This document shows positions 12,575 to 40,400 of a stretch of 50,583 nucleotides of DNA, piece by piece (within the stretch, counting starts at the first letter, position 1; each line of letters begins with the position of its first letter). The stretch is from a virus (taxonomy: Duplodnaviria; Caudoviricetes). The position numbers and the translations under genes are program-made. Under the pieces are notes generated by a model. The model worked only from the letters and a program-made list of their open reading frames with translations, had not been told where the DNA came from and made no database searches. The DNA is taken from the IMG/VR virus record IMGVR_UViG_3300027653_000015, positions 1-50,583 of that record; one strand, given 5' to 3'.

Positions 12575-12623
12575 GTAGAACCCCGTCCCTTCGACCCGGC
12601 TTCCCCTGGGGACGGGGTTTTAC
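12575..12623 (+). terminator. intrinsic terminator-like hairpin with long loop
   Basis: GTAGAACCCCGTCCC / GGGACGGGGTTTTAC arms after the holin. Confidence 0.7.
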
Positions 12624-12655: not shown

Positions 12656-12671
12656 AGTGGAAGGAACGGAA

Positions 12672-14738: not shown

Positions 14739-14948
14739 ATGAGTAACGAAAAAACGACTCGGCGCAGGCCGCCCACGACTACTCGATCAATTCGCTGCAC
14801 GCCGGAATCCTGGCGCAAGGCGCAGATCCGGGCAGATAAAGAGGGCGTTACCTTGACCCACGTTCTTCGGGAGTTCGTGGAAGGCTATGCCAACGGTCAG
14901 TTGGATCTCCCCAAGGTGATTAAGGTATTCAAGAACCCGAACGAATGA
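14739..14948 (+). CDS. ribbon-helix-helix DNA-binding protein
   Basis: 69 aa; TRSIRC strand followed by W..AQ.RA..EGVTLTHVLREFV helices. Confidence 0.7.
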   Translation: MSNEKTTRRRPPTTTRSIRCTPESWRKAQIRADKEGVTLTHVLREFVEGYANGQLDLPKVIKVFKNPNE

Positions 14949-15014
14949 AAAAAAAGAACCGCTGACTCCGGGCGATCATCGAAGTCAGCGGTTCAGATAC
15001 CGAAAGCAGGTCAT

Positions 15015-17217: not shown

Positions 17218-17235
17218 ACTAACTAGGAGGGAACC

Positions 17236-17364
17236 ATGAGACATCGCCGTACGGTAAAAATTGACTGGGTCGAGGTAATTTTTTCGGTCCTGGCCGCAGT
17301 GAGTTTCGTAGGAGTATGTTACCTCGGTGCAGTGGTAGCGATAGCAATTCTGGAGCGGATGTAG
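17236..17364 (+). CDS. small membrane protein (42 aa, absent from ORF track)
   Basis: AGGAGG RBS; MRHRRTVKIDWVEVIFSVLAAVSFVGVCYLGAVVAIAILERM; stop overlaps the helicase GTG. Confidence 0.65.
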   Translation: MRHRRTVKIDWVEVIFSVLAAVSFVGVCYLGAVVAIAILERM

Positions 17365-19012: not shown

Positions 19013-19100
19013 ATTAATTATTTATTTTATTTATTCCCCCTTAATCCCCCTTTAGGGGGATATTAAGGGGGTGGGTAGTAGTAGAAAAATTAAAAATAAA
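19013..19100. repeat. second AT-rich palindrome with CCCCCTTTAGGGGG core
   Basis: CCCCCTTAAT (19036-45) pairs with ATTAAGGGGG (19062-71) around the same core; T-rich left flank and A-rich right flank. Confidence 0.8.
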
Positions 19101-19121
19101 ACACGCGACGGAAGGGACCGC

Positions 19122-20312: not shown

Positions 20313-20332
20313 TGTGGTATAATTTGGACACA
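20313..20332 (+). promoter_or_regulatory. TGTG-N12-CACA promoter/operator, copy 3
   Basis: TGTGg TATAAT ttgga CACA. Confidence 0.8.
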
Positions 20333-20360
20333 ATAAAACTACAACGGAAGGAACCTCAGC

Positions 20361-21218
20361 ATGGCTAGTTTTGCTGGCCTGGAGTTGAGAACTCCAGCGC
20401 AAGATCGGGGGAGGTGGCTACTGCATGGACCGCAGGGATCGGGGAAAACGACCCTAGCGGCGACGATTGCAGAAGTCGGACCGACCCTTTTCATTGACCT
20501 GATTGGCGAACGCGGAACCCGCGTAATCAAGGGATCTCCTTACGAGAAAAACATTAAGGTAATTCGACCTACGTCGGTGACGCAGTTTGACGATATTTTC
20601 TGGGAACTGGACAAGGGCGAACACGAGTTTGAGGCGGTAATCCTGGACTCGCTGACCGCGCTCCAGAAGATGACGATGCGCTATCTGATGGGGCATGACG
20701 AAACCGCAGTGAAAGAAATCCGGCAAGGCGTGGCTCCAGCACAGATCCAGACCTGGGGACAGGCGCTGGACATTATGACCGACACCGCTACGTTCTGGAA
20801 CGGTCTTGCGGATGAAGATCACCCGAAGCCGATGCATGTAGTGATGATCAGCCAGACGCGGGAAGAACAGAACGCTGAACTCGGGATATTTTCTCGGGAC
20901 GTGGACGTGCAGCGCGGAGCGCGTGGAATCATGAAAGCCGCTCCGGACTATATTCTGTTTACCGACGTGGAAGAAGATCTGGAAGCCGATAACGAGGACG
21001 GTCCAGTTTTCAAGCACATCGTGCGATTCGGGGTGGATCCGGAATACCGAACTAAGGCCCGGATCCCGCAAAACCTGAGGGGCAAACTCCCCTCGATCAT
21101 AGGAAGGAAGCAGGCACCAAACCTAGTAACTCTCAGCAGGATTCTAGGCATCGGCGGTATCCCGGCTCGAAGGAAGCCAGCCGCTAAGAACACATCAACC
21201 GCTAAGAAAGGCGAATAA
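20361..21218 (+). CDS. AAA ATPase, Sak4-like recombination protein
   Basis: GPQGSGKT and VILDSLT motifs; lies between the exonuclease and the SSB. Confidence 0.8.
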   Translation: MASFAGLELRTPAQDRGRWLLHGPQGSGKTTLAATIAEVGPTLFIDLIGERGTRVIKGSPYEKNIKVIRPTSVTQFDDIFWELDKGEHEFEAVILDSLTALQKMTMRYLMGHDETAVKEIRQGVAPAQIQTWGQALDIMTDTATFWNGLADEDHPKPMHVVMISQTREEQNAELGIFSRDVDVQRGARGIMKAAPDYILFTDVEEDLEADNEDGPVFKHIVRFGVDPEYRTKARIPQNLRGKLPSIIGRKQAPNLVTLSRILGIGGIPARRKPAAKNTSTAKKGE

Positions 21219-21223
21219 AGAAA

Positions 21224-21841
21224 ATGGCTAATCAGACCGAGTTCGTGGCAGACCTCACCAACTACAAAGACCGCGTGGGCGCTCGGATTCCTGAGGGTGA
21301 GTACACCTTCCGCGTGGACGATGCCGAACTTACCAAAGCCCGGTCGGGTAACCAGATGATCGTGTTGTCGTTGGAGGTCTTAAACGGACCGGAAGCAGGG
21401 GAGACGGTTATCGATCGGTTGACACTTTCCCCCGCAGCGATGTTCCGGGTAGTGAACTTCTTGAAGGCGCTGGGGATTCCTACGCCGAAGAAGCGCTTGA
21501 AACTAGATACAAAGCGGTTCATTAACCGCCGCATCAAGGCCGAAGTAGCGGACGGCGAACCGTACCGCAACACGGTCAAGTCGGAGGTAGTTTCCTACTC
21601 CCGCGCAGAGTCGGCTAAAGACGATGGAGCGGACGAATTGGAGGACCTGGAGGATCTGACGGACGACACCATCGAGGACCTGGAGGACGTCGAGGACGCT
21701 GAAGAAGTAGAAGAGGCCCCGAAGGCGAAGAAAAAGTCCAAGAAAAAGTCGGCACCGGAACCTGTAGAGGACGACGAGGACGACGACCTCGAAGATGACG
21801 ATGACGACGACGAGATTGATCTGGACGACCTGACCGTCTAA
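21224..21841 (+). CDS. DUF669-like single-stranded DNA-binding protein
   Basis: IPEGEY...SGNQMI motif and a very acidic C-terminal tail. Confidence 0.75.
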   Translation: MANQTEFVADLTNYKDRVGARIPEGEYTFRVDDAELTKARSGNQMIVLSLEVLNGPEAGETVIDRLTLSPAAMFRVVNFLKALGIPTPKKRLKLDTKRFINRRIKAEVADGEPYRNTVKSEVVSYSRAESAKDDGADELEDLEDLTDDTIEDLEDVEDAEEVEEAPKAKKKSKKKSAPEPVEDDEDDDLEDDDDDDEIDLDDLTV

Positions 21842-21843
21842 GA

Positions 21844-21913
21844 TCAGTAGTGCGTGTTTCTCCATGAGCGGACGAGACAACCAGCACCGCTAACGGCTGG
21901 CCGCACTACATGA
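21844..21913 (+). ncRNA. candidate structured RNA (three-way junction)
   Basis: GTAGTGCG (21847-54) pairs with CGCACTAC (21902-09), enclosing two hairpins. Folded by eye only. Confidence 0.35.
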
Positions 21914-21955
21914 CCCCGGGGAGTTTCCGGTTCCTTCCGACTCCCCGGGGTTTCT
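21913..21955 (+). terminator. terminator hairpin with anti-RBS loop
   Basis: 12-bp perfect stem ACCCCGGGGAGT/ACTCCCCGGGGT, loop TTCCGGTTCCTTCCG, followed by TTCT. Confidence 0.7.
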
Positions 21956-21979
21956 CCATGTCTGGGATACACTCCCCGC

Positions 21980-22315
21980 ATGGCCCCTACGAATGAAGCC
22001 GGAGTTATCCGGGCGATTACGAAAGCAATAAAAACCAACTACCCCAAGGCGTGGATCTTCAAAACGCATGGTGGCGGGATGCAGACGGCGGGGATACCTG
22101 ATCTCCTGGTAGTCATCGAGGGGCGCATGATCGCCCTGGAGGCGAAGCATCAACGCCCCGGCGCTACTCGGGAAGGGACGATGGCCCGGGTTACCCGGCT
22201 CCAGCAGTTTCACCTAGACGCCCTCAAAGAGGCGGGCGCAGTGGCGGAGGTAGTGGTGAGTGCGGAGGAGGCTCTCGCGGCTATTGAGGCGACGGGTTTA
22301 CATCTGACTAAATAG
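21980..22315 (+). CDS. VRR-NUC / Holliday junction resolvase-like nuclease
   Basis: E, KTHGG, GIPDL, LEAK and LQ motifs; TACACT -10 ends 6 nt before ATG (leaderless). Confidence 0.8.
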   Translation: MAPTNEAGVIRAITKAIKTNYPKAWIFKTHGGGMQTAGIPDLLVVIEGRMIALEAKHQRPGATREGTMARVTRLQQFHLDALKEAGAVAEVVVSAEEALAAIEATGLHLTK

Positions 22316-22335
22316 TGTGTTACAGTAACAACACA
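22316..22335 (+). promoter_or_regulatory. TGTG-N12-CACA promoter/operator, copy 4
   Basis: TGTGt TACAGT aacaa CACA; TTTACA -35-like element at 22297. Confidence 0.75.
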
Positions 22336-22353
22336 TTCAAGGGAAGGAACCCC

Positions 22354-22665
22354 ATGACATTGTTAAAGAGAACGGCGTCAGACCGTTTGGCAGAGATGGC
22401 CGGAGACAGGATCTGGCCCCTAGTTTTCAGGTACGGAACTCACTCCGACCCGGTTAAGCGGGCGCTTAGGGCGTGGGGCGCTATCTGGAAAGGGATTCAC
22501 GAAAGTGACGAAGTATTACATTCGACAGCATCCGCTATTGAAGTTCTTCCAGGTATGGCAACTGAGCCCGGGGGAGAACCCGAAATGGGTAACTCCACCG
22601 CAGAAGACCTGGAGGGAAGCGGTTCAGTTGATCCAATTCTTGAAACGGAAGGAACAGAAAATTGA
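22354..22665 (+). CDS. hypothetical protein
   Basis: ATG after GGAAGGAACC; its 3' half overlaps an alternative ORF at 22505-22690. Confidence 0.5.
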   Translation: MTLLKRTASDRLAEMAGDRIWPLVFRYGTHSDPVKRALRAWGAIWKGIHESDEVLHSTASAIEVLPGMATEPGGEPEMGNSTAEDLEGSGSVDPILETEGTEN

Positions 22666-23927: not shown

Positions 23928-23977
23928 AAGAAACCGACTCTCCTACCTCACAACTCTCGGGGGAGTCGGTTTCTTTT
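23928..23977 (+). terminator. intrinsic terminator with long pyrimidine loop
   Basis: AAGAAACCGACTCTCC / GGGGAGTCGGTTTCTT followed by TT. Confidence 0.75.
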
Positions 23978-24007: not shown

Positions 24008-24026
24008 GATTAGCGAAGGAACCGAT

Positions 24027-27035: not shown

Positions 27036-27070
27036 TACAATAGGGTTACGATTAGCAGGAAGGAACCATA

Positions 27071-27679: not shown

Positions 27680-27912
27680 TCGGGACCGCTGAACCTGGAA
27701 CCGAAACCGGATCTCTACTGCAAAAGTATCGCCCTGGGGGATACAAACGCAGTAAGGATCCGGTTTTTCTGTGCCCAACCGATCTCTAAACGGCGATTAG
27801 CGGGCCGATCAGGCACTGACCCTACCTAGGACACCTAACCACCCTGAAACCCGCTCAAAAGCGCTTCCAGGCACCGAAACGACTTGCATTAGAGGGGGAG
27901 GACCGTAGTACG

Positions 27913-28200: not shown

Positions 28201-28924
28201 ATCGGCGGAACTTCCGACGCTGCATTTGATGTGGCTTCCGGGACACAATTATTTTCGAGACCGGAACGCAGCGAAGTGGATTACCGGAAAATATTTTTCA
28301 GGAAAAGTTTGCGTCCATGCGGATCGGGAACGAAAAGGCAATGGCTGGAACCATCGGCAGATAGTTCAGTGTGCTTTGCAAGACGGGAAAGCCTGGAGTT
28401 TAGTGATTCAGGACGACGCGATACCTTGCGCAGGGTGGGAAGATCATCTGAAACGAGTTCAGGAAACCGCAGTGCAGCCCTTCGTTAGATTATATTTTCC
28501 GGGCAACTACGGGAAAGCCCTAGCAGATAAAGGCGTTCCGTATGGCTACAGCAAAGAATCCACGGCAGCGGTAGCGGCGCTATTCGAGCGCGAGAATTTG
28601 AAAAACTACGCTCGGTTTACGGTAGAAGTGGAGCGCGAGTTCCCGGGGTTTTTCTATAAATGGGATGACATTCTTATAGAGATATACAACATGGTGGCGG
28701 GAACCTATTCGGCGATTACGGCAAGAAACTTGGTGCGCTTATTGGACGTACCTTCGACGCTAGGAAATCCGCCAGCACGCGATCCCGACTTCACGATAGA
28801 GGACCCGGGACCCGAATGGGAAGCAGAACCTCGGGAAAGATCGGCAGGACTGTATCCCGGGGACCGGACCAGATTCCAGCCGATACTGGAACGAATGCGG
28901 GAGATCTGGAGCGGGAAACAGTGA
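28190..28924 (+). CDS. putative glycosyltransferase (GT-A-like), paralog 1
   Basis: HADRE..G.WNH, LVIQDDA, WDD and PSTLG motifs. Confidence 0.6.
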   Translation: MQNKSAELPTLHLMWLPGHNYFRDRNAAKWITGKYFSGKVCVHADRERKGNGWNHRQIVQCALQDGKAWSLVIQDDAIPCAGWEDHLKRVQETAVQPFVRLYFPGNYGKALADKGVPYGYSKESTAAVAALFERENLKNYARFTVEVEREFPGFFYKWDDILIEIYNMVAGTYSAITARNLVRLLDVPSTLGNPPARDPDFTIEDPGPEWEAEPRERSAGLYPGDRTRFQPILERMREIWSGKQ

Positions 28925-29703
28925 GCGACTTCAAGTGGCCGACGATGCACATAATGACCGTTCCGGGGAGCGACTCGCGGCGGGATGCGCTAGTGCAGTG
29001 GTGGCAAAAGTCTGGGGAGTATCCGGGGCGAGTATGCCTCCATGCGGATCCGGAACGGCGGGGAGTGCTTTGGAACCATGTCGGGATCCTAGAATGCGCT
29101 CTGCGCGGCGATCAGGGGGCAGGCTGGGCAATGACTATGCAGGACGATGTAAAGCCGCTTACGGGCTGGCTGGAGGCCTTAAAGCAGGTAATGCAGCACG
29201 CACCGGCGCCGTTCGTGAGTCTGGGTCACCTGGCGAAATACGGCAAGAGGCTAGTGGGGCGCGGGATCCCGTTCGGGGTCGGGGTAAACGCGATGTGGGG
29301 ACAGGCGATGCTGATCCACTTCGATGTTCTGGAGCCCTACCTGGATTTGGCGAAAACGATGCAGCACATAAATCCGAAAAAATATCGCAACTGGGACGAC
29401 TACTTGCCGACGATTTTCAATTTAATTTACGGGACCGAAGCGGCATTCACCAGCAGGGCTCTGGTGGAGCATCAGGACTGGGAATCCACGCTAGGACACG
29501 TTCCGGGACTGTGGAGACGGGCAGCCGCGACCATACGGCACGCCGGACCTCCTTGGGATGCGGTTCCACGAAGCGGGAGAGGCGCGCCGGGAGTGGAGCG
29601 GAAACACCGGGACGCGGCATCGATGGTTCAAGGGTATTGGGAACAAGAGTTAGGCATTAACGATCCGGCTGTCGGAGAAAAGGTAAAGAAGTGGATATCG
29701 TGA
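28921..29703 (+). CDS. putative glycosyltransferase (GT-A-like), paralog 2
   Basis: HADPE..GVLWNH, MTMQDDV, WDD and LVEH...STLGH motifs; GTGA overlap. Confidence 0.65.
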   Translation: MSDFKWPTMHIMTVPGSDSRRDALVQWWQKSGEYPGRVCLHADPERRGVLWNHVGILECALRGDQGAGWAMTMQDDVKPLTGWLEALKQVMQHAPAPFVSLGHLAKYGKRLVGRGIPFGVGVNAMWGQAMLIHFDVLEPYLDLAKTMQHINPKKYRNWDDYLPTIFNLIYGTEAAFTSRALVEHQDWESTLGHVPGLWRRAAATIRHAGPPWDAVPRSGRGAPGVERKHRDAASMVQGYWEQELGINDPAVGEKVKKWIS

Positions 29704-30305
29704 ACAAAGTTCGGGCAACGTCCCTGATGTATGACCTGCTCGCAAAAGATTACGACGGGCGGTACCTGGGTGAAAAGTTTCAGGCAGAAAACCGTCAAGT
29801 GTTTGAGTGGATCCGAGAAGGTCGCGGCGGAAAAATAGGCGCGCCTCGTGTGTTGGATCTGGGAGCCGGGACCGGACTAACCCTCGACATCGGAGTACTG
29901 GACGACGGAGACTTTCAGGACTACGTCGCGGTGGACCCTTCAGCGGGAATGTTGGAGCAGTTGCGCATGAAATATCCGGAAGTATCGAGGGTGTTTCCGC
30001 GAACGGCAGAAGATTTTCTGGAACAGAATCCGAACGAGATTGCGGAAATAGTGGTGAGCCTATTCGGATCTCCCTCACACATGCTGCCGGAAACAATTAC
30101 GGCTCTGCCGGGGCGGTGCATCGAGGCACTTGTACTAATGCACTACGCGGAAGGGTATTTTCCATACTTCTATGACGAAACAGTTATCCCGAACTGGTCG
30201 GAGAAAAGCCGGGAAGCAGCGCTAGCGCTATTGGAAAAATATCCAGGGAGAGTGGAGCATCTGGGAACGTTTCAGGTAGTGCTGATTGGAGAAAATTATG
30301 TCTAG
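29691..30305 (+). CDS. class I SAM-dependent methyltransferase
   Basis: VLDLGAGTG, VAVDPSAGML and SLFGS motifs. Confidence 0.88.
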   Translation: MDIVNKVRATSLMYDLLAKDYDGRYLGEKFQAENRQVFEWIREGRGGKIGAPRVLDLGAGTGLTLDIGVLDDGDFQDYVAVDPSAGMLEQLRMKYPEVSRVFPRTAEDFLEQNPNEIAEIVVSLFGSPSHMLPETITALPGRCIEALVLMHYAEGYFPYFYDETVIPNWSEKSREAALALLEKYPGRVEHLGTFQVVLIGENYV

Positions 30306-31482
30306 CACGCCGAAGCGCAGACCGATCCGGTACCGGCCTCGGTACAGCACTGGGTTAAACGTGTTTGACGCCGCGAAAGAACGGATCAAGTGGCTGTTCG
30401 ACGAGTTTGACGGGAACGTGGGAGTGTCCAATTCTGGGGGCAAGGACAGCACGGTGGTCCTGGAGTTGACGGTGCAGGTGGCGAAAGAACTTGGGGCAGG
30501 TCCGGTGCGGGCAGTGTTCCTCGATCAGGAATGTGAGTACGAATCCACTGTCAATTACCAGCGCTACATAATGAGTCGCAAGGATGAAATTAAGTTCGAC
30601 TGGTACCAGATCCCTTTCCGGATGTATAACGCTGGAAACTACGACAACCCGTGGCTCAGGGCGTGGGATCCGGACGAAGAATGGGTGCGGGATAAGGAGC
30701 CGGACAGCATTCACGAGAGCCCGTTCAAGACAGACCGTTTCTACACCCTGCTACGAGAGATAGGCAACGCCCACGAGGGGCAGGCACTATTGACCGGTAT
30801 CCGGATCGAGGAAAGCCCGAACCGTCGACTATCGAATGTGATCCGCCCGCAATATAAATGGGCAACATGGGCGTCGAGCGGGTACTCGCCGAAGCAGGGG
30901 CGGCTCCACTATAAGTTCAACCCGATTTACGACTGGACTTATAACGATGTCTGGAAGGCGATACACGACAACAACTGGGTCTATAACGAGCACTATGACC
31001 GCATGTATCACCGAGGTGTTCCGAAACGGAATATGCGGGTGAGCAACTACCATCACGAAACGGCCATGGCTTCCTTGATGGTGCTCCAGGAAACGGAGCC
31101 GGAGACATGGGAGCGGGCGACTCGGAGGCTGGAAGGCCTGAACGCGGTAACGCATATCGGGTTGAAGGCCATGCCGCGCACGCTCCCCTACATGTTCACC
31201 TCGTGGACCGAGTACATGGAGCACGTGCGGGACAACCTGATCCCGGAAGCGGATCGGGCGACCTACACCGGCTACTTCAATGAACTGGTGCGGACCTTGC
31301 CAGAACTACCGGAGAGCGAGATCGCGAGGCAGGTGGCGCGCGCCATAGTGATTAACGATCTTTATGGAACGACGTTGGATAACTGGAAAAGCGTGATCGT
31401 TCATCCCGACTCGCTGAAACGCTGGCAAGAACGAAAAGAACAAGAAGATCGCTGGAAACAACTACGGGAGCGCGCATCATGA
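30298..31482 (+). CDS. IbrA-like PAPS reductase / PP-loop family protein
   Basis: SGGKDS PP-loop, FLDQE, GIRIEES..R, PIYDW...DVW and MRVS motifs. Confidence 0.85.
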   Translation: MSSTPKRRPIRYRPRYSTGLNVFDAAKERIKWLFDEFDGNVGVSNSGGKDSTVVLELTVQVAKELGAGPVRAVFLDQECEYESTVNYQRYIMSRKDEIKFDWYQIPFRMYNAGNYDNPWLRAWDPDEEWVRDKEPDSIHESPFKTDRFYTLLREIGNAHEGQALLTGIRIEESPNRRLSNVIRPQYKWATWASSGYSPKQGRLHYKFNPIYDWTYNDVWKAIHDNNWVYNEHYDRMYHRGVPKRNMRVSNYHHETAMASLMVLQETEPETWERATRRLEGLNAVTHIGLKAMPRTLPYMFTSWTEYMEHVRDNLIPEADRATYTGYFNELVRTLPELPESEIARQVARAIVINDLYGTTLDNWKSVIVHPDSLKRWQERKEQEDRWKQLRERAS

Positions 31483-32168
31483 AACGGACGCAGGACAGCC
31501 TAGAAAAGTCGGGGGCAGACAAGGACACGCGGGAGACCTACGAGCGCGTTAACGCTCTAATTGCCGAGGCCTACGACCTATTGCAGGAGGTGCAGGACAG
31601 CCCGAACCCCGTGGGGCGCGTCCAATGGCTCCCCATCGAGCAAGTACAGGCGAACGATTACAACCCGAACGCGGTAGCGCGGCAAGAAATGCAGTTGCTC
31701 TATACGTCGATATCGGAGGACGGCTACACCCAACCGGTGGTGGCGATTTGGGACGAAGAAGAACAGAAAGCCATAATCGTGGACGGTTACCATCGCTACA
31801 CCACGATGCGGAGATACGCCGATATCCACGGATCTACGCAGGGATACCTCCCGGTAGTGCTGATCGATAAGCCTATTGCGGACCGTATAGCCAGCACGGT
31901 GAGGCACAACCGCGCTCGCGGAAAACACTCGGTGCAAGGCATGGGCAGCCTAGTGTTTCAGATGCTGGAAGCAGGCGAGACCGATGCCGAAATATGCAAC
32001 AAACTCGGGCTGGAGGTCCAGGAACTGGTGCGATTGAAACACATCACCGGATATTCGAAACTATTTGCGGATGTCGAGTATTCGGAGGTAACGCTGGCAG
32101 ATACCCAACTAGAAGAAAAAGCAAAATACGCTCGGGAAAACCCGGGCGAGAAGATTCCGAGGTTCTGA
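31479..32168 (+). CDS. IbrB-like ParB/Srx domain protein
   Basis: NDYNPN, DGYTQPVV, IVDGYHR and STVRHNRARGKH motifs. Confidence 0.85.
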   Translation: MKRTQDSLEKSGADKDTRETYERVNALIAEAYDLLQEVQDSPNPVGRVQWLPIEQVQANDYNPNAVARQEMQLLYTSISEDGYTQPVVAIWDEEEQKAIIVDGYHRYTTMRRYADIHGSTQGYLPVVLIDKPIADRIASTVRHNRARGKHSVQGMGSLVFQMLEAGETDAEICNKLGLEVQELVRLKHITGYSKLFADVEYSEVTLADTQLEEKAKYARENPGEKIPRF

Positions 32169-32755
32169 TGAAAAAAGCAACACTGGGCCGAACCGAGATG
32201 ACCCCCATCGATTCGATTAAACCGTACTGGCGCAACCCACGCCGGATCTCGGATGAAGCGATAGAGCAACTGGCCCACTCGATTCAAGAGTACGGCTACC
32301 AGCAACCACTCGTGGTGGACGAAAAAAATGTGCTGATAGTGGGTCACACGCGGTACGCCGCGATGCGGCGCCTAGGCGTGGAAACCGTGCAGGTAATGAT
32401 TGCCGACCACTTGACGCCGAAGCAGGTAAAACAGTTCCGGCTGATCGATAACCGCGCAGCGGAATACACCACGTGGGATCCGGAAGTTCTGGCGGAGCAA
32501 CTGGCGGCACTGGAAGATCCGGAACGGATCGGGGAGTTTTTCCCGGAAGCACTGGCGCAGGATGTGTTGGACGCGGAAGAAAATCTGGAGATAGATCTGG
32601 AAACTTTCGGGGAGGACGATGCGCAAGTGCTGGAGTTTATCTGCCCCTCGTGCTACTTCACTTGGGATGCGCGGGTGACCGGCATGGCGATGATGGCTGG
32701 ATTCATATCGAAGAATGACGCCGTAGAAGCGTCGGAAAGGGGCGAGGGTGCATAA
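32168..32755 (+). CDS. ParB N-terminal domain protein
   Basis: PYWRNPR, GYQQPLVVD, VGHTR, LIDNR; C-terminal CPSC. Confidence 0.8.
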   Translation: MKKATLGRTEMTPIDSIKPYWRNPRRISDEAIEQLAHSIQEYGYQQPLVVDEKNVLIVGHTRYAAMRRLGVETVQVMIADHLTPKQVKQFRLIDNRAAEYTTWDPEVLAEQLAALEDPERIGEFFPEALAQDVLDAEENLEIDLETFGEDDAQVLEFICPSCYFTWDARVTGMAMMAGFISKNDAVEASERGEGA

Positions 32756-33326
32756 GGACCGGGAGACGGCTCTAAGGCCGTCAGAAACGATTGTGGCGCG
32801 GCTGGAGGACCTATCTGCCTACGAGGGCAACCCGCGAGTGATCAGTGAGGAAGCGGTGGCGAAAGTCCGGAAGAGCATCGAGATGTACGGATACAACCAG
32901 CCCATCGTGGTGGATCCGCAGGGCGTGGTGGTGGTAGGTCACACGCGGCTTCGGGCACTGCAAGAAATGGGCGTGGAAGAAGTTGAGGTCTACGTGTCGC
33001 CGCTATCGGATGAAAAGAACAACGAATACCGGCTAGTCGATAACCGGACGGGCGAAACCAGCCGCTGGGACCATGAAACTCTGGTGATGGAACTACGAGA
33101 ACTGGACGACGAATTACGGGACGAATATTTTCCGAATATTGATCTGGAGGTGAGCGCCCTTGGGGCAGTTGAGGTCACCGATGCGGACGTCGAACGGGTG
33201 GCTAAGGAGATGGCGAAAATGCCTGACGCGCCCTACGTTCCGATGACGCAGATCGAGTGCCCTCAGTGTGACGAAGTTTTTGAGGTGGAATCGTCTAGCC
33301 TTCCTAGTTTCGGAGAGGCTGGCTAA
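32748..33326 (+). CDS. ParB N-terminal domain protein (paralog)
   Basis: YEGNPR, GYNQPIVVD, VGHTR, LVDNR; C-terminal CPQC. Confidence 0.8.
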   Translation: MHKDRETALRPSETIVARLEDLSAYEGNPRVISEEAVAKVRKSIEMYGYNQPIVVDPQGVVVVGHTRLRALQEMGVEEVEVYVSPLSDEKNNEYRLVDNRTGETSRWDHETLVMELRELDDELRDEYFPNIDLEVSALGAVEVTDADVERVAKEMAKMPDAPYVPMTQIECPQCDEVFEVESSSLPSFGEAG

Positions 33327-36967: not shown

Positions 36968-37051
36968 CTGGAGCCGGGTTTGTTTCTCTCAACTCTCTCC
37001 CCGGCTCCGGAACCCGCCCCTTGACTTGTCCTCCGGGGGCGGGTTTTATTT
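36968..37051 (+). terminator. tandem hairpins with pyrimidine loops; the second is a terminator
   Basis: GGAGCCGGG/CCCGGCTCC and AACCCGCCCC/GGGGCGGGTT, followed by a T-tract. Confidence 0.7.
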
Positions 37052-37081: not shown

Positions 37082-37102
37082 ACGACACGGAAGGAGCCAA
37101 TC

Positions 37103-39485: not shown

Positions 39486-39518
39486 TCGAACTGAACTGAC
39501 TATCGGAAGGAACCGAAA

Positions 39519-40005: not shown

Positions 40006-40048
40006 GTAGCCCCTCCCCGGCGGGTTCCTAGTAACGGGGAGGGGTTGC
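40006..40048 (+). terminator. long-loop hairpin / terminator
   Basis: CCCCTCCCCG/CGGGGAGGGG arms. Confidence 0.55.
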
Positions 40049-40351: not shown

Positions 40352-40366
40352 ACACAACGAGAGACT

Positions 40367-40390
40367 GAGAGAGAGAGAGAGAGAGAGAGA
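40367..40390 (+). repeat. (GA)12 microsatellite in a 5' leader
   Basis: Read directly; ends 10 nt before ATG 40401. Confidence 0.9.
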
Positions 40391-40400
40391 GTCGAGAAAA

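Follow-up and report, generated by a model that had tools for sequence, protein, structure and literature searches.

Does a hairpin that follows the gene of a single-strand DNA binding protein (SSB) merely end or stabilise a phage message, or does its loop, which is complementary to many ribosome-binding sites (RBS) of the same phage, control their translation? The hairpin lies at 21913–21951 of a complete linear virus record of 50,583 nt, the whole of which was analysed (the window). Tailed-phage proteins are encoded in the window, and every annotated gene is on the plus strand. The gene order begins with tail and lysis genes, DNA polymerase A, an Arc-like repressor, primase and helicase, continues with a PD-(D/E)XK exonuclease, a Sak4-like protein, SSB, a resolvase-like nuclease, small genes and terminase, and ends with small gene cassettes at 35.5–40.6 kb, followed by portal and capsid. 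The runs holding the phage come from soil metagenomes, and no RNA dataset is among those listed. Its capsid and Sak4 proteins show 51–60% identity to Microbacterium phages Hendrix, Rasputia and Leaf and to Dulem virus 38, and from the likeness to the Microbacterium phages we infer an actinobacterial host. No named phage matched the early region.

The hairpin, here called hairpin A, is surrounded by the following features.

20313..20334, plus strand: promoter-like motif heading the Sak4-SSB unit, an extended -10 inside TGTG-N12-CACA (putative function, from its position)
20361..21218, plus strand: Sak4-like ssDNA annealing protein (AAA_24); the RBS of this gene, 20345–20355, is a class A target (11 nt) and shares a unit with hairpin A
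21224..21841, plus strand: SSB (DUF669), directly upstream of hairpin A
21847..21909, plus strand: predicted three-way junction, 5′ of hairpin A (fold z -4.9 for 21838–22000; no Rfam match)
21913..21951, plus strand: hairpin A, a 12-bp stem with a 15-nt loop (21925–21939) complementary to class A ribosome-binding sites, then a weak U-tract (fold z -4.4, 0/200 shuffles)
21957..21983, plus strand: predicted hairpin in which the start codon of the following gene, a gene lacking a clear Shine-Dalgarno (SD) sequence, is paired
21980..22315, plus strand: endonuclease / Holliday junction resolvase-like gene (phrog_93, phrog_5702), directly downstream of hairpin A

The 12-bp stem reported by the first-pass annotation is exact: the arms (21913–21924 and 21940–21951) are 100% complementary, with 15 nt between them, and begin 71 nt past the SSB stop codon. 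Its label of terminator holds only in part. A GC-rich stem-loop does stand 3′ of a stop codon, one of the marks of an intrinsic terminator, but only UUUCUCC, a weak U-tract, follows the stem, and a terminator scan (which accepts loops of 3–8 nt only) did not list hairpin A. Intrinsic terminators are described, in the passages cited, as requiring a 7–9 nt U-rich tract directly after the stem (PMC3993855). Within loop A, folding predicts a 3-bp mini-stem that partly closes the loop and leaves UUCCUU at 21931–21936 open (unpaired probability 0.99–1.0), and the predicted cost of opening the loop is 3.6–5.0 kcal/mol. We infer that the three-way junction at 21847–21909 could serve as the 5′ domain of an RNA of about 110 nt. 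No RNA family reached the Rfam gathering threshold in the window, two chance matches had E values of 2.5–2.9, and no tRNA was found.

An exact 11-nt direct repeat (21856–21866 and 21950–21960) brackets the structured region, and the first of the two copies overlaps a sequence with 11 nt of complementarity to the gene 23012 leader. A weak sigma-70-like hexamer pair (21816–21844; 8/12, 17-nt spacer) lies at the end of the SSB gene and could give the hairpin A RNA a promoter of its own. A 28-codon ORF (21910–21996), for which no SD was seen, crosses hairpin A and stops just within the next gene. Two minus-strand roles for loop A, as the SD of a gene and as a decoy, were rejected because the next ATG is about 20 nt off and is followed by a stop, and because the promoter-like motif has 0 minus-strand copies. 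Local inverted duplication as the origin of the loop was also rejected, since only a 10-nt arm at 22342 was found within 21600–22400.

The ten best targets of loop A make up class A (GGAAGGAACC-like). Apart from the Sak4 site, these are as follows.

12659..12671, plus strand: site of DNA polymerase (start 12672), 13 bp with one bulge
17226..17235, plus strand: site of a 42-aa ORF (17236–17364) ahead of helicase, one G-U pair
19109..19120, plus strand: site of the PD-(D/E)XK exonuclease (start 19122), 12 bp with one G-U
22342..22351, plus strand: site of start 22354, 10 nt
22646..22655, plus strand: site of start 22662, 10 nt
24015..24024, plus strand: site of start 24027, 10 nt
27058..27067, plus strand: site of start 27071, 10 nt
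37088..37098, plus strand: site of start 37103, one G-U
39503..39515, plus strand: site of start 39519, the longest exact match

Positions 21928–21940 are an exact 13-nt complement of 39503–39515, as claimed earlier, but not all of it is loop: 12 nt are, while A21940 is the closing base of the stem. The other sites named at that time also match loop A just before start codons (20345 over 11 nt; 22342, 27058, 24015 and 22646 over 10 nt each), and the earlier list of members was correct for these and missed four that pair with a G-U or a bulge (12672, 17236, 19122 and 37103). Thirteen near-consensus class A sites comprise four exact copies, three in which the only change is A-to-G opposite a loop U, and six with a pair-breaking change, mostly at the ends of the site; the three single internal variants are those with A-to-G facing a loop U. 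The match does extend past the SD core into the spacer, and this spacer is typical of the phage and rare in relatives, the class A word GGAAGGAAC occurring in 6/64 start regions here vs 2/1,437 in relatives.

The chance of such a fit was estimated against 70 start regions picked by hand. The four longest matches of loop A average 10.75 nt, compared with 6.72 in shuffles, and only 2/5,000 shuffled loops scored as high, so the reading of the loop as an anti-RBS element is not refuted. When the anti-SD core was held fixed, 13/560 flank permutations and 130/20,000 random flanks equalled loop A. Among all 50,568 plus-strand 15-mers it is the top antisense site to start regions (11.0), with the loop of hairpin B (below) second at 9.0, level with one coding site, and it ranks first again with automatic gene calls. 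Of 37 control loci (7–48 kb), which hold fewer genes and so make the control weaker than the test, three had their top antisense site within a hairpin loop (Anaya 10.25, L020 9.0 and L113 8.25), none at 11.0; the one control score above loop A (ZoeJ, 11.25) comes from the RBS of a gene on the minus strand. At loop composition, the chance of finding the loop words of A and B among seven long loops is about 4e-4 and 2e-3. Judged by these comparisons of sequence, the complementarity of loop A is non-random, and hairpin A is probably functional.

Further hairpins with long loops occur elsewhere in the window.

37011..37045, plus strand: hairpin B, a 15-nt loop with a 9-nt complement of GGAGGACAA (starts 35585, 35931, 38019 and 40099) and a clear U-tract (23/5,000 shuffles)
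36970..37008, plus strand: hairpin C, a 21-nt C/U loop that pairs best with GA-repeat start regions, those of 36355, 38214, 39018 and 40401 (1,995/5,000 same-composition shuffles, not significant)
40010..40044, plus strand: hairpin whose 15-nt loop includes a partial class A complement of 7–8 nt, directly 3′ of gene 39519 (30/5,000 shuffles)
23928..23975, plus strand: U-tailed hairpin with a loop like loop C (11/12 nt) and no significant target class (3,277/5,000 shuffles)

Loop C does not stand out from shuffles because any C/U string fits GA repeats. A long GA dinucleotide run occupies 40360–40392 in the leader of gene 40401, and shorter runs lie ahead of 38214 and 39018. The loops at 12579, 14956 and 23928 showed no significant match to start regions in the shuffle test; the second of these belongs to a 12-bp hairpin (14956–14994) with a U-tract on the minus strand, where no gene is annotated. 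The mean duplex energies of loops A, B and C are block-diagonal by class (A-A -19.8, B-B -16.5 and C-C -20.4 kcal/mol, vs -7.1 to -8.5 across classes), and when opening costs are included, the top 10, 4 and 4 partners of the three loops are their own classes. Seven of the 18 class sites lie upstream of their own loop (4 A, 2 B, 1 C) and 11 downstream (6 A, 2 B, 3 C). The latter are out of reach in cis and could pair only in trans, so the positions favour trans action, unless the downstream sites merely inherited the motif.

A repeated promoter-like motif, an extended -10 mostly inside TGTG-N12-CACA, has 15 plus-strand copies in the window (12636, 14695, 17198, 18984, 20313, 22316, 23988, 27031, 35545, 37062, 37978, 38970, 40063 and 40332 being listed, all on the plus strand), and a pattern search for it returned only this phage. 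The Arc-like protein encoded at 14739–14948 is a candidate binder. Pairing of -16 kcal/mol or stronger with one of the three loops was predicted for 13/15 promoter-proximal start regions vs 8/55 others (Fisher p 3e-7, a test that overstates the independence of the sites, since the members of a class probably descend from duplicated cassettes; the loops and RBS classes were also chosen after the data were seen). This contrast was matched by 0/1,500 triple shuffles, and a 16S tail does not separate the two groups (p 0.34).

Loci with relatives of the SSB numbered 162, of which 31 ended too soon and three were of low quality, and 95 distinct ones were kept. A stem of at least 9 pairs follows the SSB stop codon in 73 of these 95 distant relatives. 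Its loop is 3–6 nt long in 52/73, and an anti-SD word is present in 0/73. Retention of the hairpin without an anti-SD loop indicates that it has an older, ordinary role. Thus the hairpin is ancestral, whereas loop A and class A are both particular to this lineage; their joint presence fits a common origin, but it is a single event and not covariation. SSB homologues at 73–82% identity exist, and scans of viral, metagenome and genome sequences for relatives with DNA yielded whole-protein identities of at most 60–64%. A low-depth, near-identical contig spans 21809–22125 with six differences, and a more distant phage diverges at 21854, where a loose end of 30 nt can be read by eye as an 11-nt loop on a 5-bp stem, which is too slight to be counted. 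A pattern scan for the loop A word between G/C arms gave 40 loci, 0 with an open loop plus a matching class. In three related phages (L167:24560-24610, L054:1330-1370 and L064:1340-1380), the SD of one gene lies in a hairpin loop whose stem pairs the start codon.

Repeated RBS motifs have been described before. The start-associated sequence (SAS) of cluster K mycobacteriophages, a 13-bp RBS motif, was described in 2011 as of unknown role and possibly bound by RNA, and a single reverse copy away from any gene start was reported by Pope et al. for four K1 genomes (passages of PMC3203893). In the parts of the reports cited, SAS and the ESAS of cluster K and cluster EF Microbacterium phages are conserved beyond what 16S pairing needs, are found with non-structural genes, frequently preceded by an inverted repeat that bears a promoter, and have an RNA or protein partner that is left open (PMC3203893, PMC11373665, PMC12699233, PMC7302621). 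The window shares with them an RBS motif that is repeated on non-structural genes, conserved past the SD and placed behind a promoter-bearing inverted repeat, a layout of the promoter-like motif that resembles ESAS. Unlike them it has three classes rather than one, which differ from both 13-bp consensuses (cluster K and EF), and it has loops complementary to its RBS classes, whereas in those same parts no complementary RNA is named for SAS/ESAS and the one reverse site is noted without explanation.

In Mycobacterium phage Anaya, a reverse copy lies towards the right end, in the loop of a hairpin (L170:44790-44990, record about 59790–59990). The hairpin belongs to a conserved multi-hairpin region with covarying stems that cluster K phages carry close to their right end (L170, L171-L180 and L182). 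The Anaya region matches over 80% of its length in 153/208 hit records. Among 12 aligned cluster K phages, two-sided changes affect 14/23 pairs, above all 500 shuffles, with a structure derived from the same alignment. In five K1 phages, 0/10 columns of the anti-SAS loop vary, compared with 10/32 in the stem and 67/193 over all columns, and the linker before the loop also pairs with SAS (-11 to -15 kcal/mol). Late transcription of Adephagia begins in the right end (PMC11373665, in the passage cited).

Not all phages with such motifs conform, and among the aligned cluster K phages the loops of only 5/12 beat shuffles. SAS is unchanged in Amgine, Krueger and Amohnition, where the loop is weaker, and in Marshawn, Keshu and Leston, where it is unrelated. 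Whole-genome scans found no anti-SAS loop in ZoeJ or Marshawn, and AnnaSerena, with 10 SAS copies, has none either, so that a prediction set in advance failed. A cognate loop is thus no requirement for an RBS class, as SAS is kept without one in AnnaSerena, ZoeJ and Marshawn.

Known antisense RNAs offer partial parallels. Loop-mediated, chaperone-free pairing is established for the 6C sRNA of actinobacteria (B11 of high-GC Gram-positive bacteria), which like the present loops is pyrimidine-rich, addresses many mRNAs and has no known chaperone (cited parts of PMC6486639); it differs in being chromosomal and C-rich, while the loops here lie at phage operon ends and each fit one class of the phage's own sites. 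The host phylum is the same, that of the phage being deduced from protein relatives. In prediction, hairpin A shares the mark of a loop-presenting sRNA, an accessible loop complementary to several translation starts, and its region has no match to the Rfam 6C model. The C4 RNA of phages P1 and P7 likewise blocks the phage's own genes by antisense pairing, but C4 controls a single icd-ant operon in lysogeny (passages of PMC8198154), compared with about 18 sites in three classes here. Hairpin A is flanked by SSB and resolvase-like genes and does not precede an icd/antirepressor operon; there was no match to the Rfam C4 models, and none to icd, ant, integrase or a C1-type protein among 63 proteins scanned. 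C4 RNA folds into a three-way junction, as is also predicted at 21847–21909. In icaR of Staphylococcus aureus, a 3′ UTR element is complementary to the SD of the same message, a single gene (PMC3868564, in the part cited), whereas most sites complementary to the loops here are on other transcripts; the SD complement at 20345–20355 is in the same transcript if the unit runs from 20313 to hairpin A. Hairpin A would work like the 6C and C4 RNAs, yet is a member of neither family. No description of class-addressed phage RBS hairpins was found in the mostly open-access literature searched.

With about equal belief and doubt, we propose that hairpin A is part of a stable 3′-end RNA that would pair in trans with the ten class A sites and dampen translation of the genes that lead most early and replication operons. 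Transcripts from the 20313 promoter would partly stop or be trimmed at hairpin A, acting as a leaky terminator or decay barrier, and a fragment of about 21847–21957, protected by its 5′ junction, would accumulate during infection. The open UUCCUU seed would nucleate on the SD core, the 3-bp mini-stem would open, and some 10–12 bp would come to cover the SD and spacer, close to the limit for a 15-nt loop, which could probably accommodate about one helical turn. Hairpins B and C at 36970–37045 would act likewise on the two other classes, so the three intergenic hairpins likely dampen whole gene classes at translation, and together they could provide a delayed negative feedback on early gene expression. 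The first-pass suggestion of a trans-acting anti-RBS sRNA that silences a class of mRNAs is thus strengthened by class-specific complementarity, now extended to two more loops, and weakened by the distant relatives that keep the hairpin without the loop.

The plainest alternative is that hairpin A is an ordinary terminator or 3′ stabiliser whose pyrimidine-rich loop fits purine-rich starts by chance, the RBS classes having arisen by duplication of promoter-RBS cassettes. The hairpin position kept without the loop in 73/95 relatives, the SAS-type classes that exist without a loop, and the non-significance of loop C and of the loops at 12579, 14956 and 23928 all speak for it. We consider it unlikely, given that loops A and B match order-specifically, that two loop words among seven long loops have the low chance values given above, and that only 3/37 control loci, none at 11.0, have their top antisense site in a hairpin loop. 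It is quite unlikely that pairing is instead confined to cis, the loop folding back, after transcription has ended, on the leading RBS of the transcript that carries it, so that translation is limited to the nascent message. Such an arrangement has a precedent in icaR (the cited part of PMC3868564), and each loop does have a partner in its own unit (20345 for A, over 11 nt; 35585 and 35931 for B; 36355 for C; 39519 for the 40010 loop). However, the longest A match (39519) and the strongest C duplexes (38214 and 40401) lie downstream, 11/18 sites are beyond cis reach, and no matching loop accompanies the class sites of the units that end at 27703, 37937 and 40647.

The direction of control could also be reversed, with abundant early 5′ leaders binding the nascent hairpin loop and altering read-through into the resolvase-like gene. 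The weak U-tract at hairpin A would suit this, as would the next gene, which lacks both a promoter motif and a clear SD and whose start codon is predicted to be paired, but the 12-bp GC stem is stable. Hairpin B moreover has a strong U-tract with a new promoter motif (37062) immediately 3′, where read-through control would do little, and we regard this reading as highly improbable. Least credible, with a very small probability, is that the main targets are messages of the host or of competing phages with similar SD spacers, or that the loop binds a protein. The core of loop A resembles the 16S tail, the loops at 23928 and 12579 lack a clear partner in the window, and SviR is a precedent for cross-genome targets (10.1101/2022.04.08.487710, in the part cited); against this, the match runs into a spacer typical of this phage and rare in relatives.

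A broader form of the trans-pairing proposal is advanced tentatively, with rather more doubt than belief. Early genes may each carry one of three RBS tags, and hairpin RNAs from operon ends may each shut off one class; the same code would explain the K1 SAS, whose single reverse copy would be the loop of a covarying RNA near the start of late transcription. The translational control addressed by RBS class that was suggested at first agrees with the block-diagonal pairing of the three loops, but less well with published phage RBS classes that have no cognate loop. Few phage-encoded regulatory RNAs have been described, as far as the cited part of 10.1101/2024.10.31.621285 goes, and the post-transcriptional shut-off of phages' own early genes is poorly known. 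If the proposal is true, such shut-off can be protein-free, multi-channel and readable from sequence alone. The long-standing question of the role of SAS would then become directly testable, as K1 phages are cultured and their anti-SAS loop can be mutated.

Other features of the window deserve mention. Two related AT-rich inverted repeats, at 667–740 and 19036–19071, have a CCCCCTTTAGGGGG core and arms of 28 bp and 10 bp, and are a possible replication origin or protein site. A long interrupted hairpin with a U tail (27703–27770, about -38 kcal/mol) is a possible RNase III substrate. Ahead of the terminase, the region 28816–33326 carries glycosyltransferase-like, methyltransferase-like and PAPS reductase genes and three ParB-domain genes, and is likely a DNA modification module.
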